Shown here piece after piece: positions 1,428-62,306 of a stretch of 64,000 nt of DNA (the first letter of the stretch is position 1; every line of letters begins with the position of its first letter). Origin of the DNA: Parcubacteria group bacterium Gr01-1014_8 (lineage in GTDB: Bacteria > Patescibacteriota > Minisyncoccia > Phycocordibacterales > UBA2100); contig VMGC01000005.1 of assembly GCA_007376385.1 (NCBI GenBank), forward strand, positions 96,001 through 160,000, read 5' to 3'. Below the pieces are notes generated by a model. That model was not told where the DNA came from, did no database searches, and saw only the letters and a list, made by a program, of their open reading frames with translations. The translations under genes were made by a program, and so were the position numbers.

Positions 1428-2471
1428 ATGCTTGTTGATGATGTCACCATAAAACTCTCTGGGGGCAACGGCGGTCCGGGCATCGTCGGCTTCAATCGCA
1501 CTAAAGGAAACACGGGTCCGACAGGCGGTAACGGGGGCCCTGGCGGCGATGTCATTCTTGAAGGCATTTCGGATATCAGCGCGCTTCTTCAATTCAGATT
1601 TAACAAAGATTTCAAAGGCGAAGATGGCAAGCAAGGCACAACGCGTCTGCGCGACGGCACGCGCGGTGAGGATTTGATATTGAAAATTCCGACGGGAACG
1701 GTCATCACGAATCTCGACACAGGCTGGACGCATGAACTGACGAAGGAGGGCGAGCACGTTATGGTCGCAAAAGGCGGCTATCGCGGCCGTGGAAATTTCC
1801 ACTTCCGCGCATCGACGAATACGACGCCGATGGAAGCCGAGACGGGCGAACTCGGAGAGAGTTTTACATTCCGCCTTGAACTCAAGATGATCGCCGACGT
1901 GGGTCTTATCGGTATTCCGAACGCAGGCAAATCGTCGCTTCTCAACGAACTGACCGGCGCGCACTCGAAGATAGGGAATTACGCGTTCACGACACTCGAG
2001 CCGCACCTCGGCGCATACTACGGGCTCATTCTTGCAGACGTGCCGGGTCTTATCGAAGGTTCGTCGGAAGGCAGGGGCTTGGGAGACAGATTCTTGCGCC
2101 ACATCGAACGCACGCGCGTCCTCTTTCATTTAGTGTCTGCGGAATCAGACGATGTCGTACGCGATTACAAAATAGTGCGGCAGGAATTGCAGGCCTATAA
2201 TCCTGCGCTCACAAAAAAAGAGGAGTATGTGTTTTTGACGAAGGTTGACCTCGTGGATGGTAAGGACGCGGAAGCAAAATTGAGGTTATTGAAGAAGATG
2301 AACAAGAATGCGCTCGCGCTCTCGGTCATCGAAGATAAGCGGATGAGGGCGGTGAAAGACATTCTCAACACGTTCCTAAAAGAAAAGAAGGTGGCTCCCC
2401 CTGGGACCACACTTGGATTTTCTGAAGCGGGAGTACCCGCTAAGAAAATCTCGGCGGTCGATGACAAATGA
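1428..2471 (+). CDS. obg: GTPase Obg/CgtA
   Basis: N-terminal Gly-rich Obg fold (GGNGGPGIVGF...GGNGGPGGDVIL). G domain with GIPNAGKSSL (G1) and DVPGLIEGS (G3). The C-terminal ~18 codons are encoded by repeat family B (see findings). Confidence 0.92.
   Translation: MLVDDVTIKLSGGNGGPGIVGFNRTKGNTGPTGGNGGPGGDVILEGISDISALLQFRFNKDFKGEDGKQGTTRLRDGTRGEDLILKIPTGTVITNLDTGWTHELTKEGEHVMVAKGGYRGRGNFHFRASTNTTPMEAETGELGESFTFRLELKMIADVGLIGIPNAGKSSLLNELTGAHSKIGNYAFTTLEPHLGAYYGLILADVPGLIEGSSEGRGLGDRFLRHIERTRVLFHLVSAESDDVVRDYKIVRQELQAYNPALTKKEEYVFLTKVDLVDGKDAEAKLRLLKKMNKNALALSVIEDKRMRAVKDILNTFLKEKKVAPPGTTLGFSEAGVPAKKISAVDDK
2404..2457 (+). repeat. Family B hairpin repeat, copy B1, embedded in the 3-prime end of the obg coding sequence
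   Basis: GGACCACACTTGGATTTTCTGAAGCGGGAGTACCCGCTAAGAAAATCTCGGCGG. Near-identical copies sit at 20463..20518 (same orientation) and 20936..20988 (reverse complement). Internal dyad GCGGG-agta-CCCGC. Confidence 0.8.
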
Positions 2472-3159
2472 ACCGACAGTGATTTTTGAGAACGACGATT
2501 TTCTCGTCATCAATAAACCGGCCGGGCTCATCGTGCACTCGGACGGAAGGACGATAGAGCCGTCGCTCGCCGACTGGCTCATCGCGCGCTCCCCCGCGCT
2601 ACAAGAGGTCGGCGAGCCATGGGTGTCGCCGCAAGGAGAAAAAATTGCGTGCCCTGGTCTTGTGCATCGTTTGGATAGAACAACATCGGGTGTGATGGTT
2701 GTGGCGAAAACACAGGCGATGTGGAAATACCTGCGCGCAGAATTTAAAGAGCGGCGTGTCGAAAAGAAATATCACGCATTTGTCTACAGTCATGTGGAGG
2801 GGAGTTCTGGTCGGATTGTTTCTGAAATCATGAGGTCGTCTACGCCTCCTAAAAAATGGTATGCACGGCCATGCGACGAAAGCCACAAGCGAGCAGCCAT
2901 AACGGATTGGACGCTTTTGAAAAAGCTCGAAGATAACGGCGAGCTCATTTCGTATCTCGAAGTTCAGCCTCGTACCGGCCGCACGCATCAGATACGCGTG
3001 CATCTTGCATCTATCGGGTATCCTATAGTCGCGGACCATCTGTACTCCGACAAGAAGCCACTTTTAGGATTCACGCGCCCGGCGCTTCATGCACACAGTA
3101 TTTCATTCATGCTGCCGTCAGTAGAAAACCGGGAATTTATTTGCGAGCGTTGCGAGTGA
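2461..3159 (+). CDS. RluA-family 23S rRNA/tRNA pseudouridine synthase
   Basis: Catalytic motif HRLDRTTSGVMVVAKT and RTGRTHQIRVHLA. The chosen start, MTNEPTVIFENDDFLVINKPAGL, overlaps the obg stop by 11 nt. The last 6 codons (ICERCE*) are encoded by repeat C1. Confidence 0.88.
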   Translation: MTNEPTVIFENDDFLVINKPAGLIVHSDGRTIEPSLADWLIARSPALQEVGEPWVSPQGEKIACPGLVHRLDRTTSGVMVVAKTQAMWKYLRAEFKERRVEKKYHAFVYSHVEGSSGRIVSEIMRSSTPPKKWYARPCDESHKRAAITDWTLLKKLEDNGELISYLEVQPRTGRTHQIRVHLASIGYPIVADHLYSDKKPLLGFTRPALHAHSISFMLPSVENREFICERCE

Positions 3160-3220
3160 AATGCAAAAGAGCACTTTTGTATTTCCGAGTCGAGGAGCAA
3201 ACACAGGTTCAATACCTCGG
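3137..3220 (+). repeat. Family C dyad-symmetric repeat, copy C1
   Basis: TTTGCGAGCGTTGCGAGTGAAATGCAAAAG-agca-CTTTTGTATTTCCGAGTCGAGGAGC...GGTTCAATACCTCGG. Homologous to 27115..27203 and, in reverse complement, to 61726..61813. Confidence 0.75.
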
Positions 3221-9049: not shown

Positions 9050-10861
9050 TTGTGGGATGATGCGCTGATGGATTTTGGTCGCAAGTCAATAGGGGACATG
9101 CTAAACGGGATGGCTCGGTACCGAGTCCCAAAATACCAGCGCTCCTTTACCTGGGGTACAAACCAAGTCTCAGATTTTTGGAGAGACCTTTGTGAAGCAG
9201 ATGAGAGAGAAGGATTCTTTCTCGGGACCATGATATTGCATAAGGATAGAGAGGGGGTAGAGGTGGAAAATCTCAAGAATATTGTTGATGGACAACAGAG
9301 AATGACCGCCGCAAGTTTATTATTGCTCGCATGCAGGAATCACTCGTCAAGAAGGAACCGAGACAGGGCTGCTGCACTTGATCAAACTCTGATGTTTCGT
9401 GATATCGCTACTGGAAGAGCGGAAACGCTCAGACTTGAGGTCGCTCCAGACATTCTAGATGCTTTTCGTCACATGGTGACTGCTAGGCAGTGGGATGAAC
9501 AAACTTTTCCAGACGAAGTAGATGGCCGAGTCGCCAGACGAATAAAGTCTATTTATAAGTATTTCAAGCAGCAGGTAGACGAACTATCAGATGCAGAGCT
9601 CTCGTCCTTACTTAATAAATTGTTGAATTCATACTTTCTTGTGATAGAAATTGAAGATATCACACAGGCTTTTGAGCTTTTTGAACGAACAAATGCGCGA
9701 GGAACTCCGCTGAATGCAGGAGAGTTGCTCAAGAACAGACTGTTTGCAGAGGCGCAGGAGAAAGAAATTGTAGAAGGCGAATGGGAGGAGATTGTTTCTA
9801 ACTCTAATGGGATGCTACTGCGAATGTTGAAGTATTTTGCAGCTCTTAAGCACGGGCAAGAAACGGGTCGGACGGTTTTGTATCGACATCTGCGTGGTCA
9901 AGTTGAATCGGACACACCGAGCCAGTTCATCCACGATTTGAGCGCTTTCTCTTCATATTTTGGAAAGTTCTTGGACAACAAACTTCAAGCCGCACCATTT
10001 ATTGATCGAAATTCTGATAAGTCATTCGAATTTCTCTTCATTGATGAGATTGCTTTTAAAAAGTTTGGTCGCAGCATGAGTGCGATATCTCTTTTTGGTG
10101 TCTACATTGTCCTTCCCGTTGTTTTCGCTGGCCTAAAAGGGCTATCGAAATTGAAAGACAAAAGCGGATTTAGACCCGCGTTGAAAGATTTTCTAAATCT
10201 TCTAGGTACGATGGAGTGTTTCCATTTTATCAATAATCAGATATGTACACGTCCCTCGAATCGTGCCGAGTCACTATATGCAAGTAAAACAAATGTGTTG
10301 GCGACAGCGGAGACATGCGCACAGTTCAGAGAGGTAATAAAGCAGATATCAAAAGGACTCAAGGAGATAAAGGTCGCTAATAAGGAAGAGTTCCTACTTA
10401 ATTTTACTGGACTTTCATATACGAGTCCTGCAAGCGATAAGCCTCTCTTTGCATACGTCTTTGATAGATTTGAATCCTCTCCATTCGCGTCAGCAGCACC
10501 TGTAACCATATTTGATCCGTCAGCTAATTACAGCCTGAACCGCGTATTCGAAGTTGAACACATTACCCCTCGAGCAATGTGGGGCAATTTATATCCGGAA
10601 GATGATTTGGTCAACAATATCGGTAATTTACTCATCCTAACGCAGGAGACTAATAGGCTTGTAGATACCAAACCATTGCCGGATAAGATTCGAATAATGA
10701 AGGAACGAGGCTACGACAATTTAAGTACCGTTCAACAATTTTCTAAAAAGTTCGAGGATAAGGAACTCAAGTGGTTACGTCCGACAGACATAACAGAGCG
10801 ATCTGTCGCAATGGCAGCTCAAGGCTACAGTGATATTTGGGATCCATGGCCGAATGATTGA
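9050..10861 (+). CDS. GmrSD-family type IV (modification-dependent) restriction endonuclease, DUF262 + DUF1524
   Basis: N-terminal DUF262/ParB-like NTPase motifs (KYQRSFTW ... VDGQQRMTA). C-terminal DUF1524 HNH-like motifs (EVEHITPRA ... GNLLILTQETN). The gene looks AT-rich relative to its flanks by eye. Confidence 0.8.
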   Translation: MWDDALMDFGRKSIGDMLNGMARYRVPKYQRSFTWGTNQVSDFWRDLCEADEREGFFLGTMILHKDREGVEVENLKNIVDGQQRMTAASLLLLACRNHSSRRNRDRAAALDQTLMFRDIATGRAETLRLEVAPDILDAFRHMVTARQWDEQTFPDEVDGRVARRIKSIYKYFKQQVDELSDAELSSLLNKLLNSYFLVIEIEDITQAFELFERTNARGTPLNAGELLKNRLFAEAQEKEIVEGEWEEIVSNSNGMLLRMLKYFAALKHGQETGRTVLYRHLRGQVESDTPSQFIHDLSAFSSYFGKFLDNKLQAAPFIDRNSDKSFEFLFIDEIAFKKFGRSMSAISLFGVYIVLPVVFAGLKGLSKLKDKSGFRPALKDFLNLLGTMECFHFINNQICTRPSNRAESLYASKTNVLATAETCAQFREVIKQISKGLKEIKVANKEEFLLNFTGLSYTSPASDKPLFAYVFDRFESSPFASAAPVTIFDPSANYSLNRVFEVEHITPRAMWGNLYPEDDLVNNIGNLLILTQETNRLVDTKPLPDKIRIMKERGYDNLSTVQQFSKKFEDKELKWLRPTDITERSVAMAAQGYSDIWDPWPND

Positions 10862-11321
10862 TGCAGCATTAATCAAACAGAAGACAAGGTACTTACGGGA
10901 CGGCCGGGCCCCGATTCCGAAAAGTGAAAAAATCTCTCGCACGATGAGTGCGATAAGAGCAAAGAACACGAAGCCCGAGTTACTTGTTCGCAAGGTTTTC
11001 CGAAAAGTAGGAATACGCGGATATCGATTGCATTGGAATAAAGTAGCCGGACGACCGGATATTGTGTTCCCTAAGAAAAAAGTCGCTGTGTTTGTTCACG
11101 GCTGTTACTGGCACGGATGTCCACATTGCAAACTTACACTCCCGAAAACGCATCGAGCATTTTGGCGTGCAAAGTTCAAGAGAAACAAGGAAAGAGACGC
11201 TCATAAGACAAAAGACCTGCGGAAATTAGGATGGCGTGTACTTACCGTGTGGGAGCACCAAATAAAGAAAGATGCGGATCAAATCGCTGCACGCGTCGTG
11301 AAGGCTCTTCGTGACGCTTGA
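10854..11321 (+). CDS. vsr: very-short-patch-repair endonuclease Vsr
   Basis: MSAIRAKNTKPELLVRK...GRPDIVFPKKKVAVFVHGCYWHGCPHC matches the Vsr hallmark (FVDGCFWHGH). The start overlaps the GmrSD stop by 8 nt in another frame. The 3-prime end overlaps the convergent MTase gene by 80 nt. Confidence 0.85.
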   Translation: MIDAALIKQKTRYLRDGRAPIPKSEKISRTMSAIRAKNTKPELLVRKVFRKVGIRGYRLHWNKVAGRPDIVFPKKKVAVFVHGCYWHGCPHCKLTLPKTHRAFWRAKFKRNKERDAHKTKDLRKLGWRVLTVWEHQIKKDADQIAARVVKALRDA

Positions 11322-12648
11322 TGCTCTGCAAAAGTGCACGGCCTATTTCTTCAATGATTCCGACGACAAGTGCGTTACCCATGAAGAACGCTCGTTTTAC
11401 GTCGGAAATGTCGTCATATGCGGTATGGCGAGCAGGGAATTGGCATAATAACTCTAACTCTGTTGGGGTAAGTCGGCGGTATTTTCCGGACTTTGTTTTT
11501 ACAACATGCTTGAATCGCGAGGGTGCGGGCCCTCCCTCTCCTGTAATTATCGTGCGGGAAGGTTTATCCAAAGCATCCGGAAAAGTCATTGGACCCTCTG
11601 CGTAGTGATAAGTGAATCCATCTGTCCCATGGCGCTCTTCCTTTTTAGCACCCTTGAGATATTTCCACTCTTTTAGTGAGCCGTTGATAAAATATTCTTC
11701 GGCGACTTTGTGTTCCGGAAGTAGAATATCACCGAGAGTAATGAAAGGGCCACCGTATTTTGGAGTTACGCGAGCGGTTGTGATCCGACCGTCACTCATG
11801 ACCCCAGCATTCGCAAAATCTATATCGTCCGGGAACAATTGTTCAAAGTCTCTCGTTATTCTGACGGGATCATCAGCGACATCGTGTCTCGCGAATCTTG
11901 AAATTTCATCTTCGACTGCGAGTCGTTGCGCGAAAACTCCTTCTTTTGTCAGCCAATTGATCGCGTCAGTCGAACGTAGCGCATTTGCAATACCGGTTCC
12001 ATTCTTGAACGCGAGAATAAAGATCCGGCGCCTGCGCTGTGGTTTTCCGTAATCAGCTGCATTGATAACGCGCCATTCGACGACATATCCGAGGTTTGCG
12101 AGCGAAGCGAGCATGATCGCAAAATCACGACCGCGGGCAGATGCTGGGGACTTTAATAATCGGTCAACGTTCTCTAGGAACACATAGGGAGCAGAGTCCT
12201 TGTGTCCTTTTTCTTGAAGAATGCGATAGATCTGCCACCAGAGAACGCCTTTCTTTCCCTGGAGTCCCGCAGCTTGGCTCAACGTTCGTGCAACCGAATA
12301 ATCCTGACAAGGAAATCCTCCGACAAGAACATGATGGTCCGGGATGTCACCTGTTGCGACGGTCGCGATATCTTGATTACTGTGTCCTTTGCTGCCAAAA
12401 CGTGCCCGGTACACCTCGGATGCGTGCTGGCGTTTCGTTGATGGCTCCCACTGATTACTCCAGATGGTCTCGAATTTCAGACCTGCTCTCGCCGCTTCCT
12501 TTTTTGATGCTTGGTCGAGTCCGAGACGAAATCCTCCCACCCCTGCGAACAATTCAATGACCTTAAGTGGCACCGCTTGTCGATCGTCTTTTTTGAGCGT
12601 ATGTTTGGCTAGTTTCCCCATAGCTAAATCGTACCAAGGAATATCCAT
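11242..12648 (-). CDS. dcm: DNA (cytosine-5)-methyltransferase (Dcm-like, type II m5C MTase)
   Basis: Motif I ELFAGVGGFRLGL, motif IV GGFPCQDYS, motif VI VFLENVDRLL, motif VIII QRRRRIFILAF. The partner of the adjacent vsr. Confidence 0.9.
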   Translation of the reverse strand: MDIPWYDLAMGKLAKHTLKKDDRQAVPLKVIELFAGVGGFRLGLDQASKKEAARAGLKFETIWSNQWEPSTKRQHASEVYRARFGSKGHSNQDIATVATGDIPDHHVLVGGFPCQDYSVARTLSQAAGLQGKKGVLWWQIYRILQEKGHKDSAPYVFLENVDRLLKSPASARGRDFAIMLASLANLGYVVEWRVINAADYGKPQRRRRIFILAFKNGTGIANALRSTDAINWLTKEGVFAQRLAVEDEISRFARHDVADDPVRITRDFEQLFPDDIDFANAGVMSDGRITTARVTPKYGGPFITLGDILLPEHKVAEEYFINGSLKEWKYLKGAKKEERHGTDGFTYHYAEGPMTFPDALDKPSRTIITGEGGPAPSRFKHVVKTKSGKYRRLTPTELELLCQFPARHTAYDDISDVKRAFFMGNALVVGIIEEIGRALLQSIKRHEEPSRRVQRFDPHLSLFGAPTR

Positions 12649-19569: not shown

Positions 19570-19599
19570 AAGCGCCCCGCCTAAAGAGGCGGGGCGCTT
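19570..19599. terminator. bidirectional rho-independent terminator hairpin (AAGCGCCCCGCC-taaaga-GGCGGGGCGCTT)
   Basis: 12-bp perfect GC-rich stem. The minus-strand side has a U-tract (UUUUGCUUUCU). It sits between the convergent genes 19027..19554 (+) and 19612..20283 (-). Confidence 0.8.
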
Positions 19600-19611: not shown

Positions 19612-20283
19612 TTAAAGACCGATCTCTACTTCTGTCGAACCTTCCATCTTCGTTTTACTTCCTGCTTCTGCACTCGAACCTCCTTCTGCATGCGCCGATG
19701 TCTCGCTTTTGACGGTGGCCGGACCGACGTGAATGTCAGCTGTTCCGTCGCCGTTCACGTCGCCCGCTGTGACATTGATGTCAGCGGTACCATCGCCGCT
19801 GACGTCCCCTGCGGCGACACCTGCGCGAGCCCGGATGTTCTGGATGATGTTCTTGAGGCTTGTGTGGGCTTCTGCTGAAGCACTGCCTTTCACGTTCGTT
19901 TCGACATTGCTGAATGCGTTGATAGCAGTGTTGATGCGCGTAAGGACCGATACCGCAGCTTCCGTCTTGCCGGACGTGCTAAGTTCGTTGGCTGCTTGAA
20001 GCGCGGCTTCTGCATGCGACGAAAATTCTGCTCCCAATTCTGCAGCAACGTCAGCATCCAATTCGCCGCGGGCGCTAAGTTCTGCGGCTTCTTGCAAGCG
20101 GCGTTCGGTAACGCGTGCTTGCCAGTTCGCTTCTGCTTCGCTCGAAACCGTAAGTGCAGCACGGACGTTTTCGTTCACCGACGTTTTCATGCCGTAGAGG
20201 ACGTCTCCCGGGACAGCATTTTCGGCGGCAAAAGAGGCTCCGCCTCCAAGTGCCAAGATCACTACTAGAATGATTGCAATCAT
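19612..20283 (-). CDS. secreted/membrane-anchored Ala/Glu-rich protein (DUF5667-like)
   Basis: N-terminal TM helix followed by AVPGDVLYGMK, typical of DUF5667 N-termini as I recall them. The rest is Ala/Glu/Ser-rich repetitive sequence (GDVSGDGTADINVTAGDVNGDGTADIHV). Confidence 0.5.
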   Translation of the reverse strand: MIAIILVVILALGGGASFAAENAVPGDVLYGMKTSVNENVRAALTVSSEAEANWQARVTERRLQEAAELSARGELDADVAAELGAEFSSHAEAALQAANELSTSGKTEAAVSVLTRINTAINAFSNVETNVKGSASAEAHTSLKNIIQNIRARAGVAAGDVSGDGTADINVTAGDVNGDGTADIHVGPATVKSETSAHAEGGSSAEAGSKTKMEGSTEVEIGL

Positions 20284-20401: not shown

Positions 20402-20431
20402 AAGCGCCCCGCCTCTTTAGGCGGGGCGCTT
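20402..20431. terminator. rho-independent terminator hairpin; inverted copy of the 19570 hairpin
   Basis: AAGCGCCCCGCC-tcttta-GGCGGGGCGCTT followed by CUUUCUU on + and UUUCUUUUUG on -. Downstream of the minus-strand csp. Confidence 0.8.
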
Positions 20432-20462
20432 CTTTCTTGACCGGCACGTGGCTCGCTTACGC

Positions 20463-20518
20463 GGCCACACTTGGATTTTCTAAAGCCGGCATACGCCCGC
20501 TTTAGAAGATCTCGGCGT
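20463..20518 (+). repeat. Family B hairpin repeat, copy B2 (abuts the csp stop codon)
   Basis: GGCCACACTTGGATTTTCTAAAGCCGGCATACGCCCGCTTTAGAAGATCTCGGCG. Inner dyad TCTAAAGC...GCTTTAGA. Confidence 0.8.
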
Positions 20519-20736
20519 TATGCCATCGGCTGAGCAACTGCTCGGCTGACCTGAGTCGCGTTCGGACCTTTCGGAGAGTCCACGACTTCAAACGTCAATT
20601 TGTCACCTTCTCGAAGCTCGTCGAATGTAACGCCGACAAGCTCTTTGGAGTGGAAGAAGACATCCTTCTCCTGCCCCTCGATCTTGATGAACCCAAATCC
20701 TTTATCAGTGATTCGGGCGATTGTTCCTGTTTGCAT
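20518..20736 (-). CDS. cspA: cold-shock protein (CspA family)
   Basis: MQTGTIARITDKGFGFIKIEGQEKDVFFHSKEL carries the RNP1 (KGFGFI) and RNP2 (VFFHS) motifs. The ORF-track N-terminal extension (MRACFYQFYFHFI) was rejected as non-coding. Confidence 0.9.
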   Translation of the reverse strand: MQTGTIARITDKGFGFIKIEGQEKDVFFHSKELVGVTFDELREGDKLTFEVVDSPKGPNATQVSRAVAQPMA

Positions 20737-20935
20737 AATGAAATGAAAATAGAATTGGTAAAAACATGCTCGCAACGCGCTATAGAGTTTAATCCAAGTG
20801 GTCGCAGGTAAGTATCAAAAGCAGTGTGCTGGGAGTTGTAGGTCGATCCCTCTTCTCTGGATCAGCCCTGAAATTGATGCCCGAAGGGTATCACACGCTT
20901 TCTCGCTTGTCCAGTCCTAAAAGAGGGGTATACTG

Positions 20936-20988
20936 CGCCGAGATTTTCTTAGCGGGTACGCCCGCTTTAGAAAATCCAAGTGTGGTCG
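20936..20988 (-). repeat. Family B hairpin repeat, copy B3 (reverse complement), ~200 nt upstream of the csp start
   Basis: The reverse complement reads CGCGACCACACTTGGATTTTCTAAAGCGGGCGTACCCGCTAAGAAAATCTCGGCG, near-identical to B1. Confidence 0.8.
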
Positions 20989-21010
20989 CGAAGCGAGCCA
21001 CCGCCCTGTT

Positions 21011-21925: not shown

Positions 21926-22450
21926 ATGAATAGGGCTTCTATACAGCTTTCCTGCCTCGCATCCATGATGGCAGCCGTGTTTATGATCGTACCCGTAACT
22001 GCGGATGCGCAATATTATGACGACTATGGCTCCCAAATAGCGTATGAGGAAGTGTACGACTTTGGTTATGGATACGATTACAGTGATTTCTACGATACCT
22101 ACGATTATTACGATTACGGATATGACGACTACTCGCAGTACCAGTGGGTGAGTTACGGGGGAAACTATGGAGGCGGATACAATTCTCCCTACCAGTCTGC
22201 GTATCCATATCAAGCAGCGTTTCCGGTCTCATACGGCCAGCAGCAATATGGCCAACCGTACGCGCAGTACACTTTTTCCGCATACCAATTCAATTCTCCG
22301 TATCAATACACGTACAATGCATCGCCTACCGGCGATTACATTCCATACGTGAACGAGCCGCTGTGCGACTACCCGGGCTATGGCCGCTATTCGTGCAGTT
22401 ATCATCCAAGCCAGCCGATATACGACTACTGGACAGGTACCTGGTACTAG
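21926..22450 (+). CDS. secreted Tyr/Asp/Gly-rich low-complexity protein
   Basis: Signal peptide, then repetitive Tyr-rich sequence (YDYSDFYDTYDYYDYGYDDYSQYQW...GGNYGGGYNSPYQSAYPYQ). Roughly one residue in five is Tyr. Confidence 0.55.
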   Translation: MNRASIQLSCLASMMAAVFMIVPVTADAQYYDDYGSQIAYEEVYDFGYGYDYSDFYDTYDYYDYGYDDYSQYQWVSYGGNYGGGYNSPYQSAYPYQAAFPVSYGQQQYGQPYAQYTFSAYQFNSPYQYTYNASPTGDYIPYVNEPLCDYPGYGRYSCSYHPSQPIYDYWTGTWY

Positions 22451-22597
22451 AGAGGTGTTTGCTCGGCATGTGTTTGCAGCCGCTGGTGTCCGGCGCTGCA
22501 CATTCGGTCTGTTGCTCTTAGTACTTCCTACATTCAGCCTACTGGCTTCAGTATTTCCTCGTTCTTCACTTGGTCATCGCTCTGCGCTCGGCAGGCT

Positions 22598-22637
22598 GCA
22601 TACCTTAGTGGTGCCGACCGGCACCACTAAGGTATGC
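22598..22637. repeat. Family A palindromic element, copy A1
   Basis: GCATACCTTAGTGGTGCCGACCGGCACCACTAAGGTATGC is a perfect 40-nt palindrome. It lies just upstream of the Rpf-like gene. Confidence 0.8.
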
Positions 22638-22696
22638 GTTCTTTGCGGGGATATCTTTCTTGTTTGGGGCATCGTACGCCTGCTACTGTTACTGGG

Positions 22697-23677
22697 ATGA
22701 TGTTAAGAATTAAGAGTGCAGCAGGCTTCGTTCTACTCTTGCTGCTTTTGCCGCCTCTCGTAGGCGCACAAGGGCTGCCTGAGTCGCCAGCGTCCCCCAA
22801 TAAAGACGTTGAGGCGCTCGTTCGCGCGGAATTTGCAGACATACCGCTCATGATATCCATCGCACAGTGCGAATCAGAAATGAGGCAGTATGGCCCGCCC
22901 GGCAAGGGCGCAAACGGGGCCCTGCACGGAGGCGCAGGCGGCGCGATGGTAGGAGTCTTTCAGATCCATGAAGGAGTTCACCGCGCGGCAGCCAAAGCAA
23001 AGGGCATGGATATTGATACGCTCGAAGGAAATATCGCCTACGCGCGCTACCTATTTCAAACAGAAGGTACGAATCCGTGGCTCTCATCAGCGTCGTGTTG
23101 GCAGAGTACAGCGATGACGATTTCCTCCGTTGTTGATCCTGGTTCGATTGTTGTACCCGGCGATGTTGCGGAGCATAAGATATACACGTTTAATTCGCGC
23201 ACGCTCACCGCCGCATTGAAAATCGGCGACACGAAGCCAGAGGTCATCACGCTGCAAAAGATGCTGAACGGATCAGGTTTTGTGCTTGCTGAGTCCGGCC
23301 CAGGCTCGCCGGGCAATGAGACATCTACCTTCGGCCCCTTAACACGCGCGGCAGTGCGAACCCTGCAGTGTCATTCAAAGATAATTTGCTCCGGCGACGA
23401 AAAAACGACTGGCTTTGGATTCGTCGGTCCGCGCACGCGTGCAGCCCTCATGCAATTTGCAAAGGATAACGTGTACGTTCAGCCAGAGCCGATAATTGTG
23501 ACTGTGCCCCTGGACGGGCAGGCCGGCAGCTCTTCAACGTCTACAGCGTCGACTACACCACCAGGTTCTTCCGGCTCACCGACTTCCATGACGCCAGAAA
23601 AAGCTGCTCAAATAGATCTCTTGCAAGCACAGATACATGAGTTGCAACATCGAATTGCCGAACTAATGGATACGTGA
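22697..23677 (+). CDS. secreted lysozyme-like/Rpf-like transglycosylase domain protein with two peptidoglycan-binding (PG_binding_1) repeats and a C-terminal coiled coil
   Basis: Signal peptide (MMLRIKSAAGFVLLLLLLPPLVGA). IAQCES...GVFQIHEG...NIAYARYL...W resembles the transglycosylase-like/SLT lysozyme fold. TLQKMLNGSGF...FGPLTRAAVRTLQ and GFVGPRTRAALMQF are PG_binding_1-like. Confidence 0.65.
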   Translation: MMLRIKSAAGFVLLLLLLPPLVGAQGLPESPASPNKDVEALVRAEFADIPLMISIAQCESEMRQYGPPGKGANGALHGGAGGAMVGVFQIHEGVHRAAAKAKGMDIDTLEGNIAYARYLFQTEGTNPWLSSASCWQSTAMTISSVVDPGSIVVPGDVAEHKIYTFNSRTLTAALKIGDTKPEVITLQKMLNGSGFVLAESGPGSPGNETSTFGPLTRAAVRTLQCHSKIICSGDEKTTGFGFVGPRTRAALMQFAKDNVYVQPEPIIVTVPLDGQAGSSSTSTASTTPPGSSGSPTSMTPEKAAQIDLLQAQIHELQHRIAELMDT

Positions 23678-23895
23678 GCACAAGAACCTGATATCGACCG
23701 GATATGGTGCCGTAGACCCCCGAACTCGCGCGGCGATAGCGGCTGTGTGCAGCTTTTGAATAGAATGTTAGTCAGCAGAATTGCCGAAGCTGTAGATACG
23801 TGAGCTAATATTTTGGGGTCAGTTTTCCACTGGCACATTGCCGGACGGCCTGCTATTCTGCAGCCAATGACTCACCCCGGAACGGCCGTCATGAT

Positions 23896-26421
23896 GTGTA
23901 TATGAAAAAACACATCCGACCGAGCGGCGTGCGACAACCGAGTGGCGAACGAGGACGTGGTGAGGACAGCAGTCCGAATCCAGGAAGTGCTGAGGCCAGC
24001 AGAGCGAACGTGGTCTGGATGGAGGAGGTCGGGATGAACGATGTCGCGAGCGTGGGGGGAAAGAACGCCTCGCTGGGCGAGCTTCTCGGTTCTGTCGGAA
24101 AAAAAGGAGTTCGAGTGCCGAGCGGTTTCATCGTCACTGCAGCAGCGTACGAGTACATATTGAAGAAAAATAATCTGAATGCATTTATTAAAGAGACTCT
24201 TAGTGGCATCCAGGTCCGCAACATCAAGGAACTTGCACGCCGCGCAAAGAAGATACGCGACAAGATAATCGCCTCAAAACTCCCGCCAGACCTGGCGGGA
24301 GAAATCGTTAAAGGGTATCGGGAGATGGAAAGGCAATACGGTAAAAATGTGGATGTTGCGGTCCGCTCCAGCGCGACTGCAGAAGACTTGCCGGATGCGA
24401 GTTTTGCAGGGCAACAGGAGACATACCTCGGCATCCGCGGAGAAGCAGCAGTCCTGAAAGCGGTGATGTGGACCATAGCGTCGCTCTTCAACGATAGAGC
24501 AATCGTATATCGCGCCGAAAAAGGATATTCCCATACACACATCGCACTTTCCGTCGGTGTTCAGAAAATGGTGCGGGCAGGGGAGGGCTCATCGGGCGTC
24601 ATGTTTACGCTCGACACCGAATCCGGATTCAAAGATGTGGTGCTGATCACCGCCTCGCTGGGGCTAGGCGAGCTTATCGTCCAAGGCCGCGTTTCTCCCG
24701 ATGAGTACATCGTATTCAAGCCGACGCTCGGCAAGTTTCCGAAACCAATCATCTCAAAGGCAATGGGCCAGAAGGAAGGCAAGATGGTGTACTCCAAGCA
24801 AAACGAATCAGTGGATATTTCGCGCGTAAAAGAAATTAAGACAAGTGAAAAAGAACGAAGCACGTTCTGTCTCTCGGACAAAGATATTCTTACGCTCGCA
24901 AAATGGGCGACGATGATAGAGGACCACTATACGAGGCGCCGCGGTTCATGGTCGCCGATGGACATCGAGTGGGCGAAAGATGGCGACGGGAAACTGTATA
25001 TCTTGCAGGCGCGGCCGGAGACCGTGCAAGTGAAGCGTGACGTCACGGTCTTTCGAGAATATTTGCTTCGCGGCAAACCGCGCAAACTTCTTGCGAAGGG
25101 TATATCAGTGGGGCACAGCATCGTCTCTGGACGTGCACGCGTTATCCATCACCCCAAGGAAGCAGAACAATTCAAGAAAGGCGAAATTCTCATCACGAAA
25201 ATGACAGACCCTGACTGGGGCCCGATCATGAAAATGGCAACCGCCATCGTAACGGATAGTGGCGGCAGGACCTCGCACGCGGCAATCGTCTCTCGCGAAC
25301 TTGGCATTCCGGCCATCGTCGGCGCTCATGACGCGACAAAAAAGATAAGGACGGGAGACATCATCACCATAGATGTCGCAGGCTCGGAAGGCAGGATTTA
25401 TCCGGGCAAGGTCTCCTTCACGATGACCGAACAGAACATCAAGGCGCTCCCGAAAACAAAAACGAAGCTCATGCTGAACCTCGCGTCGCCCGACATGGCA
25501 TTCGGCTATTCGCACTTGCCGGTGCAGGGCGTGGGCCTCGCGCGCGAAGAATTCATCATCGCGTCCTACATCGGCATCCATCCATCGGCGGTTCTCAATT
25601 TCAAAACGTTGCCCCCGGACATAAAGAAAAAAGTCGCGAACCGTACGCGCGGTTGGAGCGACCCGAGACAATTCTACATAGACAAGCTTGCCTTCGGTAT
25701 CGCCAAGATCGCGGCCGCATTCTATCCGAAGCAGGTCATCGTCCGTTTTTCTGATTTCAAGTCGAACGAGTATGCAGGCCTCATAGGCGGTGACTTGTAC
25801 GAGCCTAAAGAAGAAAACCCGATGATAGGGTGGCGTGGTGCGTCCCGCTACTACGCGCCGGCATTCCGCAAAGCGTTCGAGCTGGAAATAAAGGCGTTCT
25901 TGAAAGTGCGCAACGATATGGGGCTTAAGAACGTGATACCCATGGTGCCGTTCTGCCGCACTATTGAAGAGGCGAAAAAGGTTCTTGCGTTGATGGCGGA
26001 GGACGGACTTGTCCCGCGCTCGCTCGCGAAGAAGAAGAGCGAAGGAGTCGAAACCATCATGATGTGCGAGATACCGTCAAACGTCGTCCTTGCTGATGAA
26101 TTTCTCAACTACTTCGACGGTTTTTCCATCGGCTCGAACGACTTAACCCAGCTTGCGCTCGGACTCGACAGAGATTCTGGCACTATCGCCAAGGTGGGCA
26201 ACGAGAACGACCCGGCTATCCGAAAACTCATCAGTGGCGCAATAGATGCCTGCAAGAGGCGAAAGAAATATTCAGGCATCTGCGGCCAGGGTCCGTCGGA
26301 TCTTCCTGATTTTGGCGACTTTCTGGTGCGGAAGGGAATTGGGAGCATGTCGCTGAACCCCGACACGGTCGTCAAAACGCTGGTGCGGATCGCGAAGCTG
26401 GAGAAAAAGTTGAAGTTCTAA
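23896..26421 (+). CDS. ppsA: phosphoenolpyruvate synthase (pyruvate, water dikinase)
   Basis: N-terminus VVWMEEVGMNDVASVGGKNASLGELL aligns with E. coli PpsA (LWYNQLGMNDVDRVGGKNASLGEM). The central phosphohistidine domain (GGRTSHAAIVSRELGIPAIVG) and C-terminal PEP-utilising TIM barrel are present. 841 aa. Confidence 0.92.
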   Translation: MYMKKHIRPSGVRQPSGERGRGEDSSPNPGSAEASRANVVWMEEVGMNDVASVGGKNASLGELLGSVGKKGVRVPSGFIVTAAAYEYILKKNNLNAFIKETLSGIQVRNIKELARRAKKIRDKIIASKLPPDLAGEIVKGYREMERQYGKNVDVAVRSSATAEDLPDASFAGQQETYLGIRGEAAVLKAVMWTIASLFNDRAIVYRAEKGYSHTHIALSVGVQKMVRAGEGSSGVMFTLDTESGFKDVVLITASLGLGELIVQGRVSPDEYIVFKPTLGKFPKPIISKAMGQKEGKMVYSKQNESVDISRVKEIKTSEKERSTFCLSDKDILTLAKWATMIEDHYTRRRGSWSPMDIEWAKDGDGKLYILQARPETVQVKRDVTVFREYLLRGKPRKLLAKGISVGHSIVSGRARVIHHPKEAEQFKKGEILITKMTDPDWGPIMKMATAIVTDSGGRTSHAAIVSRELGIPAIVGAHDATKKIRTGDIITIDVAGSEGRIYPGKVSFTMTEQNIKALPKTKTKLMLNLASPDMAFGYSHLPVQGVGLAREEFIIASYIGIHPSAVLNFKTLPPDIKKKVANRTRGWSDPRQFYIDKLAFGIAKIAAAFYPKQVIVRFSDFKSNEYAGLIGGDLYEPKEENPMIGWRGASRYYAPAFRKAFELEIKAFLKVRNDMGLKNVIPMVPFCRTIEEAKKVLALMAEDGLVPRSLAKKKSEGVETIMMCEIPSNVVLADEFLNYFDGFSIGSNDLTQLALGLDRDSGTIAKVGNENDPAIRKLISGAIDACKRRKKYSGICGQGPSDLPDFGDFLVRKGIGSMSLNPDTVVKTLVRIAKLEKKLKF

Positions 26422-26451
26422 TCAAGAGTCTCTGCATAGAGCTCAAATCCA

Positions 26452-26491
26452 AAATACCATAATGGTGCCGGTCGGCACCATTATGGTATTT
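26452..26491. repeat. Family A palindromic element, copy A2; likely bidirectional terminator after ppsA
   Basis: AAATACCATAATGGTGCCGGTCGGCACCATTATGGTATTT is a perfect 40-nt palindrome, followed by CGTTTTTC. Confidence 0.8.
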
Positions 26492-26512
26492 CGTTTTTCA
26501 TGGTGAGAAGCG

Positions 26513-27114: not shown

Positions 27115-27203
27115 CTTTATTGGCGAGCGTTGCGAGCGAAGCGAAAATGTATTCATTTTCATTTTCGAGCCGAGGAGCCAACATAGGGTCGAATACCCCG
27201 CGG
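27115..27203 (+). repeat. Family C dyad-symmetric repeat, copy C2
   Basis: CTTTATTGGCGAGCGTTGCGAGCGAAGCGAAAATG-tattc-ATTTTCATTTTCGAGCCGAGGAGCCAACATAGGGTCGAATACCCCGCGG. Intergenic, between two minus-strand genes. Confidence 0.8.
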
Positions 27204-27215
27204 TATGAATACCCT

Positions 27216-27581
27216 TTATTTTAAGAGCCTGTCGATAGCATCAATGATGCCTTGTGCTGATTCATCTGATTTCACTACGTAGCCGCGGATACCGAGCGCC
27301 ATTCCTTCCGCGATGTTATCCATTGAAGACACGTTGGAGGTAATGAGTACAGGCGTTTTACCCTCGCCGTATTTTTTGTTCAGTTCCTTCAGGAATTGGA
27401 GGCCGTCCATTCCAGGCATCTTGATATCAAGAAGGATGCCGTCGGGCTGTGATTCGCTCATTTTTTGCAGCCCCTCGCTTCCGTCACTCGCACATACCAC
27501 TTCGTACTCTGCGCTGTCCAGCTCTCCTTTCATGAGACTCTTGAAAGTCTCGTCATCATCGATAATAAGTATTTTCTTCAT
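27216..27581 (-). CDS. single-domain response regulator (CheY-like receiver)
   Basis: ILIIDDDE ... GILLDIKMPGMDG ... receiver fold. 121 aa. No cognate kinase is adjacent. Confidence 0.82.
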   Translation of the reverse strand: MKKILIIDDDETFKSLMKGELDSAEYEVVCASDGSEGLQKMSESQPDGILLDIKMPGMDGLQFLKELNKKYGEGKTPVLITSNVSSMDNIAEGMALGIRGYVVKSDESAQGIIDAIDRLLK

Positions 27582-50475: not shown

Positions 50476-50617
50476 ATGAATAGTATAGACGATGATTCCA
50501 AAATAATCTTACGCACTAGCGTGATGCGATAATCGTACTCCGAACATCACAAAAAGACTGACTGTGTGGGTTGGCGTTGTCGCGCTCATACTGCTGGATC
50601 GTCACTTTATCTTGCGA

Positions 50618-50692
50618 GGATAGCGAGAGAAATGCGAGTGCTTGCACTCGCATTTCCGAGCGACGCAGCAAGCAAAGGTTTGAAACCTTTCA
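50618..50692 (-). repeat. Family C-prime dyad-symmetric repeat, copy 1 (overlaps the stop codon of 50690..51226)
   Basis: CTTGCGAGGATAGCGAGAGAAATGCGAGTGC-ttg-CACTCGCATTTCCGAGCGACGCAGCAAGCAAAGGTTTGAAACCTTTCA. Perfect 13-bp inner hairpin. Confidence 0.8.
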
Positions 50693-51226: not shown

Positions 51227-51237
51227 ATACTTATTTT

Positions 51238-51316
51238 TTGTCTTGCGAGGATAGCGAGTGAAGCGAAAGCACGCTTTCGCTTTCGAGCGTCGCAGCAAGT
51301 AAAGGTTTACCTTTCA
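51238..51316 (-). repeat. Family C-prime dyad-symmetric repeat, copy 2 (overlaps the stop codon of the XRE HTH gene)
   Basis: CTTGCGAGGATAGCGAGTGAAGCGAAAGC-acg-CTTTCGCTTTCGAGCGTCGCAGCAAGTAAAGGTTTACCTTTCA. Confidence 0.8.
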
Positions 51317-59852: not shown

Positions 59853-59862
59853 TCCGTATACC

Positions 59863-59900
59863 GTATACCTTAATGGTGCCGGTCGGCACCCTTAAGGTAC
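59863..59900. repeat. Family A palindromic element, copy A3 (imperfect), after hpf
   Basis: GTATACCTTAATGGTGCCGGTCGGCACCCTTAAGGTAC. Confidence 0.75.
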
Positions 59901-61512: not shown

Positions 61513-61725
61513 ACCGTGAGGCTATATTTATTCGAAGGCCGGTCTGGAGCGCGCGAAGCAATGCTGTGCGCTTGCACTCCGACCGGCCTTGCGCTCGCAA
61601 ACACCCTCCCAGGGTTTGCGCGCGATCCACTATGAGAAAGTATATAGCCAATAAAGGGTATACATACCGGCGGGGCAAACCCCGCCATGAGGAACGCGCT
61701 TCGCGCATCCTCCCTAGCCGGCAAG

Positions 61726-61813
61726 CCGCGGGGTATTCGACCCTATGTTGGTTCCTCGGCTCGGAAATGAACATGAGTACACGTTCATTTCACTCGCAAC
61801 GCTCGCCAATAAA
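61726..61813 (-). repeat. Family C dyad-symmetric repeat, copy C3 (reverse complement)
   Basis: The reverse complement reads TTTATTGGCGAGCGTTGCGAGTGAAATGAAC-gtgtactcat-GTTCATTTCCGAGCCGAGGAACCAACATAGGGTCGAATACCCCGCGG. It lies in the large intergenic region upstream of def. Confidence 0.8.
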
Positions 61814-61977: not shown

Positions 61978-62253
61978 ATGAAGCACATTGGGGCACATTT
62001 AAAGACGCGCAAGCATATTCTTCGCGAGACGGAGCGGGGGGAATTGATGAAATTCTTTTGCGAGCGCCTGAATTCGACGCGCCGGTTTGACGGTCTGCCT
62101 CGTATAACGATGGCCCGCATGGGGAAAATACTTGAAGGCATTCCGACAAAGGACCTCTATTATCTAAAGCGGGTTTGTAATGATGCTGGCAATTTCTCCA
62201 AAAAATTCTGGTGGGAGGTAAATCCAAAAAAGCATCCTGACGCTAAGATCTGA
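61978..62253 (+). CDS. hypothetical basic protein
   Basis: 91-aa ORF followed by palindrome A4. No family recognised. Confidence 0.4.
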   Translation: MKHIGAHLKTRKHILRETERGELMKFFCERLNSTRRFDGLPRITMARMGKILEGIPTKDLYYLKRVCNDAGNFSKKFWWEVNPKKHPDAKI

Positions 62254-62262
62254 CCTCGATGC

Positions 62263-62306
62263 CTAAATACCTTAGTAGTGCCGGTCGGCACTACTAAGGT
62301 ATTTAG
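62263..62306. repeat. Family A palindromic element, copy A4
   Basis: CTAAATACCTTAGTAGTGCCGGTCGGCACTACTAAGGTATTTAG is a perfect 44-nt palindrome. Confidence 0.8.

Follow-up and report, generated by a model that had tools for sequence, protein, structure and literature searches.

Genomic Setting of the Family A Palindromes

The window analyzed here is a 64,000-nt stretch of the genome of Parcubacteria group bacterium Gr01-1014_8, part of the 189,832-bp ENA contig k139_616945 (ERZ27284378); with 8.6 kb added on its left and 8.3 kb on its right, 81 kb of the source genome were covered. Within these 81 kb we found four copies of a short palindromic sequence, hereafter Family A, each of them a singlet (table 1). 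They occupy the four places where they had originally been predicted, with copy 2 extending to 26450-26493. Copy 1 lies 27-60 nt ahead of the start of a PG_binding gene and 147 nt past the nearest credible upstream stop codon (22450), that of a gene for a Tyr-rich secreted protein (21926-22450). Copy 2 takes up most of the 91 nt that separate the convergent ppsA and DUF1003 genes, 28 nt past the ppsA stop (26421) and 19 nt from the opposing DUF1003 stop (26513, minus strand). Copy 3 is located 10-13 nt past the hpf stop (59852), in the 185-nt spacer of the convergent hpf and fmt genes, and copy 4 follows the stop of a conserved 91-aa gene (61978-62253) by 9 nt, 231 nt ahead of mreB. The expected placement 5-20 nt after stop codons thus holds for copies 3 and 4 but not for copies 2 and 1, the distance to the upstream stop being 9-28 nt in three of the four. 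All four copies are intergenic, an outcome with a chance probability of ~3e-4 given that 13% of the DNA is intergenic by called genes, which shows that Family A is restricted to intergenic DNA. The copies form two pairs, with members 3.9 and 2.4 kb apart and 33 kb between the pairs; two pairs as close as these would arise by chance with a probability of ~0.025.

Table 1. Coordinates of Family A, of Palindromes and Transposase Genes in Related Loci, and of Other Repeats in the Window
Feature	Sequence	Coordinates	Strand	Description
Family A copy 1	window	22598..22637	-	40-nt perfect palindrome GCATACCTTAGTGGTGCCG-AC-CGGCACCACTAAGGTATGC; plus-strand centre AC
Family A copy 2	window	26450..26493	+	44-nt palindrome, one mismatch, centre GT
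Family A copy 3	window	59863..59900	+	34-38-nt palindrome, one T.C mismatch, centre GT
Family A copy 4	window	62263..62306	+	44-nt perfect palindrome, centre GT
L057 palindrome	L057	31-70 and 2092-2131		both gene-end sites
L086 palindromes	L086	3212-3261 and 5365-5420		both gene-end sites
Long perfect palindromes	L098	3372-3403, 5308-5346		at the two gene-end sites
Long perfect palindrome	L136	5363-5396		at the two gene-end sites
Long perfect palindrome	L137	1454-1485		at the two gene-end sites
Long perfect palindrome	L143	2604-2645		at the two gene-end sites
IS200-type element, intact	L050	8002-8619		~570 bp before window position 1 to window position 46; TnpA 151 aa
IS200-type element, second copy	L120	5272-5889		another species
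RAYT-like Y1 gene	L117	564-1244 (with flanking palindromes, 520-1270)		spacer of 91-aa gene/mreB; flanks CATTATGGCAGTCAGACTGCCATAATG and TATGGCAGTCTGACTGCCATAAT, centres flipped; ~226 aa; 23-29-nt perfect palindromes
RAYT-like Y1 gene	L142	302-991 (with flanking palindromes, 272-993)		flanked on both sides by ATGTGGGACATCCGATGTCCCACAT; third copy in frame within the gene; ~226 aa; 23-29-nt perfect palindromes
Twin terminators	window	19570-19599 and 20402-20431		30 nt, AAGCGCCCCGCCT-AAAG-AGGCGGGGCGCTT
Second repeat	window	3136-3210, 27116-27220, 50607-50681, 61650-61675 + 61726-61813 (inverted)		~75-110 nt, intergenic
Second repeat, partial copies	window	12090-12115, 51237-51262
Third repeat	window	2390-2456, 20446-20511, 20936-21002 (inverted)		~67 nt, 90% identity

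Copies 1 and 2 coincide with synteny differences from related genomes. Relative to the closest relative (L052), the region 22451-23895 holds an extra PG_binding-domain gene (22664-23677) together with copy 1, both inserted in the interval from the gene for the Tyr-rich secreted protein to ppsA. A response-regulator-type gene that lies downstream of ppsA in L052 and L055 is missing, and copy 2 stands in its place. We considered whether the palindromes could be rearrangement junctions or the bounds of a mobile cassette, and rejected this on the basis of the block from copy 3 to copy 4, which is syntenic in ~80 relatives. The window also contains a cluster of defence-type genes (9068-12648), namely GmrSD (PF03235/PF07510), a Vsr mismatch endonuclease and a C5 DNA methylase. 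The ~20-kb stretch from obg to ppsA that includes this cluster has no counterpart in the closest relative, where obg and ppsA are ~3.6 kb apart.

Another strain, represented by Logan run SRR8863434, is identical to the source genome over the stretches compared, and no presence/absence polymorphism of Family A was seen between the two. One Logan contig of this run (L056) corresponds to window positions 22606-26482, beginning within copy 1 and ending within copy 2. The palindromes therefore fragment short-read and k-mer assemblies, a point of practical consequence.

Sequence Conservation and Compensatory Changes

Family A copies are palindromes of 36-44 bp in which a GC-rich centre is enclosed by AT-rich arms, the sole asymmetry being a central GT. 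The predicted size of 40-44 nt agrees with the dyads of copies 1, 2, and 4 (40, 44, and 44 nt) but not with that of copy 3 (34-38 nt). The core GTGCCGRYCGGCAC occurs four times in the window, on each occasion without mismatch. It had been described as GTGCCG(G/A)(T/C)CGGCAC; its invariance was borne out, but the two variable bases are a single GT flipped to AC in copy 1 rather than two substitutions. Copy 1 is, in effect, inverted relative to copies 2-4, with its central dinucleotide reverse-complemented (AC vs. GT), which shows that the copies can lie in either orientation.

The 16-nt half-site TACCTTAGTGGTGCCG, searched with up to three mismatches, gave eight matches, corresponding to the two arms of the four copies, against 0.34 matches in shuffled sequences (0/100 shuffles reached eight). 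The arms alone (TACCNTA..TANGGTA) likewise retrieve just the four Family A loci, where 0.03 are expected. A covariance model (R1) derived from the four copies and run over the window with filters off detected no further or degenerate copy, and Rfam 15 contains no match to Family A, whether judged by gathering scores or with E-values as high as 5.

For the analysis of covariation the copies were first oriented by their central dinucleotide. Twelve of the 21 stem pairs are invariant, and six are changed on both sides (nine cells) while none is changed on one side only, a covariation score matched by 0/500 shuffles. The invariant parts comprise the 14-bp palindromic core and the TACC, TA, and T of the arms. 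These results confirm that the copies diverged with their dyad symmetry kept and show that they are real repeats which maintain it through compensatory changes. The claim of exact mirroring in every copy needs correction for copy 3, in which one base is unmirrored, giving a T.C mismatch (left arm TTAATGG vs. TTAAGGG for the reverse complement of the right arm). Copies 1 and 4 are perfect, and the 44-nt dyad of copy 2 has one mismatch. In copy 3 the outer 7 nt of the left arm are also present in tandem (59856-59869, GTATACC GTATACC), and the right arm is shortened (GGTAC); this arm duplication has the appearance of slippage at the hairpin foot.

Hairpins and Transcript Ends

Each Family A copy is the sole strong hairpin of its spacer, with folding energies of -26 to -45 kcal/mol (z-scores -3.9 to -8.0). 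In several respects they recall bidirectional intrinsic (Rho-independent) terminators: the top of the stem is GC-rich, the AT-rich arms pair with each other, and the copies sit between convergent genes or after stops. Copy 2 has in addition U-rich tails on both strands, being flanked by A-rich sequence on one side and T-rich sequence on the other. In contrast to such terminators, the arms of Family A are of mixed sequence and not A- or T-tracts, and the same sequence recurs at unlinked sites. Ordinary terminators in the source genome consist of an A-tract, a GC stem, and a T-tract (e.g., CAAAAAGCCGCCTTCAAGGCGGCTTTTTG), with stems of 9-14 bp versus 18-21 bp in Family A. A U-rich tail is found on the plus strand only of copy 1 and is missing from copies 3 and 4, which makes canonical intrinsic termination doubtful at the latter two. 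It is plausible for copy 2, so that from its sequence only this copy looks like the bidirectional terminator that all four had been proposed to be. A pause site, a block to 3' exonucleases, or a processing hairpin are candidate roles that would fit all four copies.

One of the canonical terminators in the window occurs twice (table 1), the two 30-nt sequences being exact reverse complements of each other, 830 bp apart, on either side of a gene on the minus strand (19612-20283). Ordinary terminators, too, are thus locally duplicated in the source genome.

Distribution in Other Genomes

A scan of 185,579 GTDB species genomes (ACC-N6-core-N6-GGT) returned 47 matches, all of them single, in coding sequence, and in other, mostly high-GC taxa; none of the 47 has mirrored arms, and Family A was thus not found among the GTDB species representatives. 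With the pattern TACC-N6-core-N6-GGTA, JGI metagenomes and IMG/VR gave zero matches. The Fmt protein of the window is identical to the one filed at NCBI under Parcubacteria group bacterium Gr01-1014_8. The nearest PpsA relatives are named Candidatus Kaiserbacteria and are at most 83% identical, so that this CPR genome, the Logan strain aside, is without a close sequenced relative. Our sample of ~530 kb from ~85 relatives comprised 58 kb at ppsA from three of them, a further three loci at fmt, and 469 kb in 80 JGI loci retrieved through the conserved 91-aa gene. No Family A copy was recovered from five related loci with the covariance model, nor from 80 further related loci whose long palindromes were inspected. 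Overall, Family A looks specific to the source species.

Gene-End Palindromes in Related Genomes

In ~80 relatives hpf is followed by fmt and def, both on the opposite strand, and these by the 91-aa gene and mreB, so the sites of copies 3 and 4 are directly comparable across them. In three genomes the two gene-end sites carry one and the same palindrome family. The most informative comparison comes from L057 (GCA_964373725.1), whose Fmt is 70% identical. A 38-nt palindrome, CCTAAGGTTAAACCTTAG-GT-CTAAGGTTTAACCTTAGG, is present there at both sites, embedded in 40 nt that do not differ between the two. At the 91-aa orthologue it overlaps the stop codon; at the other site it fills the 36-nt spacer of fmt and hpf and overlaps the fmt stop. 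Since this spacer measures 4 nt or less (genes abutting or overlapping) in 12 of 38 relatives, the L057 copy is best read as an insertion. The L057 palindrome and Family A have in common the arm ACCTTAG/CTAAGGT and the central GT, Family A corresponding to the L057 arm with TGGTGCCG-GT-CGGCACCA replacing that GT, which suggests that the two might be of common descent.

Another genome (L086) has a third family at both sites, whose A- and T-tracts recall those of canonical bidirectional terminators. More generally, some relatives have a long perfect palindrome at one or both sites, and others have nothing there. Several of these site palindromes have arms made of short tandem units (CCTAAGG/CCTTAGG, or ACATTC..ACATTC), and in many of them, as in Family A, GTC stands at or beside the centre. 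A family of the form ACATTC..ATTCT|AGAAT..GAATGT is present in at least five contigs and displays compensatory changes. Palindromes repeated within the locus were found in L070, L096, L110, L117, L129, L130, L137, and L142, some with flipped centres or mirrored substitutions. A likeness between copy 2 (ATAATGG..GTC) and the L117 palindrome (ATTATGG..GTC) was dismissed as chance, since it concerns a variable arm position of one copy only.

These comparisons show that Family A sites are positions where other Kaiserbacteria bear different, lineage-specific palindromes, and so mark gene ends at which a hairpin is either tolerated or required. The sequence of that hairpin is lineage-specific, yet often uniform within a genome.

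Y1 Transposases in the Source Genome and Its Relatives

The original prediction called for a search for a REP-associated tyrosine transposase (RAYT), and neither tblastn nor profile HMMs revealed a RAYT-like gene or remnant in the 81 kb of source genome. The sole Y1 transposase in this stretch is that of an intact IS200-type element at the left edge of the window, ~23 kb upstream of copy 1. The element immediately follows a terminator hairpin and possesses a 5' UTR hairpin; its TnpA scores 127 bits on the NCBI IS200 model and 35 on the RAYT model (cut-off 80). The end hairpins of the element, CTCCGGCGTTAGCCGGAG and TGCCGGCGTAGCCGGCA (also written CCGGCGT(T)AGCCGG and CCACCGGAC-loop-GTCCGGTGG), are unrelated to Family A, any likeness ending at a 5-bp TGCCG/CGGCA stem. 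A second copy, with 88% DNA and 93% protein identity, was found in another species (L120), where one of its ends overlaps the stop of the 91-aa gene, i.e., in the spacer that holds copy 4 in the source genome. The element therefore passes from one species to another and makes use of this spacer too, but nothing connects it with Family A.

What characterizes REP/RAYT systems is a Y1 gene with flipped palindrome copies on either side. This is the arrangement that we found in two relatives, L117 and L142 (table 1), so a system of the REP/RAYT kind exists in the clade. The L117 protein matches Pfam Y1_Tnp, and its sole NCBIfam match is the REP tyrosine transposase model, below cut-off. Against the PDB, the relatives' Y1 proteins give marginal matches (E ~0.005-0.01) to ISDra2 TnpA and Escherichia coli TnpA-REP alike, an equal distance by which this comparison cannot separate RAYT from IS200. 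A search with these proteins gave 5,663 homologues with E-values of 1e-5 or less, the named ones being from Patescibacteria, Paceibacterota, or Kaiserbacteria. Many of the homologues sit on very short contigs of 1-3 kb, for which assembly breakage by palindromes may be the reason.

Comparison with Known Palindromic Elements

The closest resemblance to be considered is with the REP and REPIN sequences that accompany RAYT genes in E. coli and Pseudomonas. Like these, Family A consists of short extragenic palindromes just after genes and in either orientation, with a lineage-specific sequence whose stem is kept by compensatory changes, and in the relatives L117 and L142 a single Y1/HUH gene lies between two flipped palindrome copies. 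There are nevertheless differences. Classical REPs are imperfect palindromes of 20-40 nt with a 5' GTAG, whereas those of Family A are perfect over 36-44 bp, with a 2-nt asymmetric centre and stems without bulges; a GTAG is seen in copy 4 only, as a by-product of a variable arm position. The copy number of REPs in a genome runs from tens into the hundreds, with doublets frequent, and Family A has four copies in 81 kb, all singlets and none forming a BIME or REPIN doublet. The 81 kb read contain no RAYT, the clade's Y1 proteins fall below the NCBI RAYT cut-off, and the host belongs to the CPR rather than to the proteobacteria. The earlier description of Family A as REP/BIME-like is therefore partly supported: the sequences may be called REP-like by architecture and context, but they have no BIME or REPIN doublet and no conserved GTAG. 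In the literature on REP/RAYT elements or intrinsic terminators in CPR/Patescibacteria we found nothing relevant.

Inverted DNA uptake sequences that double as terminators (the DUS of Neisseria and USS of Haemophilus) are also species-specific palindromes at gene ends, with different "dialects" at matching positions in related species. DUS and USS recur roughly every kb and are found within genes as well, whereas the Family A half-site is confined to the four palindromes, and nothing links Family A to DNA uptake. With MITEs and PATEs, the miniatures of IS200/IS605 elements, Family A shares a short, non-coding, palindromic sequence dispersed in intergenic DNA, yet it is much shorter than typical MITEs, has no distinct left and right ends, and is unlike the ends of the resident IS200. 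No target-site duplication was detected at copies 1-3, and a flanking direct repeat (GATGC) is present at copy 4 only. Integron attC, dif/Xer, and protelomerase sites were rejected on the basis of features which we take to be diagnostic of them: Family A has no R'/R'' cores, has housekeeping neighbours, and is a multi-copy site. A restriction-site reading, considered because the core contains RCCGGY, was set aside, with nothing in its support.

Origin and Role of Family A

From sequence and context we put forward, with an even balance of belief and doubt, that Family A is a small species-specific family of REP-like palindromes at gene ends, giving transcripts a 3' hairpin. Its main rival is an ordinary transcript-end hairpin or terminator that requires no transposase, the likeness between copies resulting from local duplication or gene conversion (concerted evolution) and the arms being kept by selection on RNA folding. 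We regard this as possible, although not probable. It would agree with the position of three of the four copies 9-28 nt past a stop, with the U-rich tails of copy 2 (both strands) and copy 1 (one), and with the two close pairs (3.9 and 2.4 kb; chance ~0.025), which suit local copying. Furthermore, the source genome has an identical terminator pair in opposite orientation (at 19570 and 20402), and the orthologous sites of relatives bear hairpins, including in L086 A-tract/T-tract bidirectional terminators that are alike at both sites. However, gene conversion requires homology in the recipient and cannot give the L057 palindrome, which fills a spacer of near-zero length in other genomes and overlaps stops; nor is the spread between pairs 33 kb apart explained. 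Copies 3 and 4 have no U-tract, and the 18-21-bp stems far exceed those of the canonical terminators of the genome. In addition, changes in the arms are Watson-Crick on both sides, without the one-sided G-U intermediates that selection at the RNA level would tolerate.

Two further readings fit poorly. Family A might be the double-stranded DNA site of a dimeric protein, such as an operator serving a small regulon or a site of centromere or nucleoid type, in which the 14-bp core would be the recognition sequence. The palindromic and invariant core, the likewise invariant TACC, TA, and T of the arms, the low copy number, and the location of copy 1 27-60 nt ahead of a gene start would be expected of such a site. 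We find it very unlikely all the same: copies 2 and 3 lie between convergent genes with no promoter to regulate, uncontacted positions should vary independently whereas six covary and none changes on one side, and the core is missing from ~85 relatives with the same genes and synteny, which is unexpected for a conserved regulon. To our knowledge, the core has no match to the parS consensus either. The remaining reading, to which we attach hardly any credence, takes Family A as a footprint of the neighbouring IS200, either a miniature derivative (PATE-like MITE) or a preferred target hairpin. An intact element does lie just outside the window, its 93%-protein-identical copy in L120 occupies the spacer of copy 4, and the stem TGCCG/CGGCA is common to the right-end hairpin of the IS and the Family A core. 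Against this, the IS end hairpins are unlike Family A beyond these 5 bp, Family A has neither left-end/right-end asymmetry nor internal IS sequence, and no IS adjoins any of the four copies.

Returning to the reading of Family A as a REP-like family, we infer both its movement by a Y1 transposase and its effect on transcripts. New copies would arise by insertion of a single-stranded hairpin form, for which the likeliest agent would be a Y1 (HUH) transposase of the RAYT-like type common in Patescibacteria; in two relatives, Y1 genes of this type are flanked by flipped copies of their own palindromes. An inserted copy would be transcribed as the last part of the upstream gene or genes, and its 18-21-bp hairpin would insulate convergent or tandem genes from one another, whether by making RNA polymerase stop or pause or by holding off 3' exonucleases. 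Mirroring of the arms may be kept by selection for the hairpin or by hairpin-templated repair, and the copies would occupy the few permissive spacers at gene 3' ends.

CPR genomes are of ~1 Mb and usually described as poor in repeats and mobile DNA. Under this proposal Family A would extend a known kind of element, the REP-type repeats, to a tiny-genome CPR lineage. A broader scenario, which we offer tentatively and with more doubt than confidence, is that Kaiserbacteria, and perhaps Patescibacteria generally, harbour lineage-specific perfect-palindrome "mobile terminators" spread by a large RAYT-like Y1 clade. These would settle repeatedly, in one lineage after another, in the same few gene-end spacers, sometimes supplying the stop codon and replacing the local terminator, with Family A as the version of the source species. 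A REP-like system in a CPR lineage, particularly one with lineage turnover at fixed gene ends and a link to a widespread Y1 clade, would mean that hairpin repeats persist even in very reduced genomes, and its repeats would shape how CPR genomes end transcripts. As far as the present evidence goes, Family A itself is a modest example with four copies.

Other Repeats in the Window

Two further repeats were identified in the window (table 1). The second repeat, which has no match in Rfam, is intergenic and combines conserved flanks (TTTATTGGCGAGCGTTGCGAG ... CCGAG.CGAGGAGCCAACA) with an internal hairpin that covaries, seven pairs being changed on both sides. It is found upstream of the DUF1003 and 91-aa genes, both of which end in a Family A copy. 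The third repeat has two inverted copies that flank the gene of a cold-shock protein (20518-20775, minus strand).
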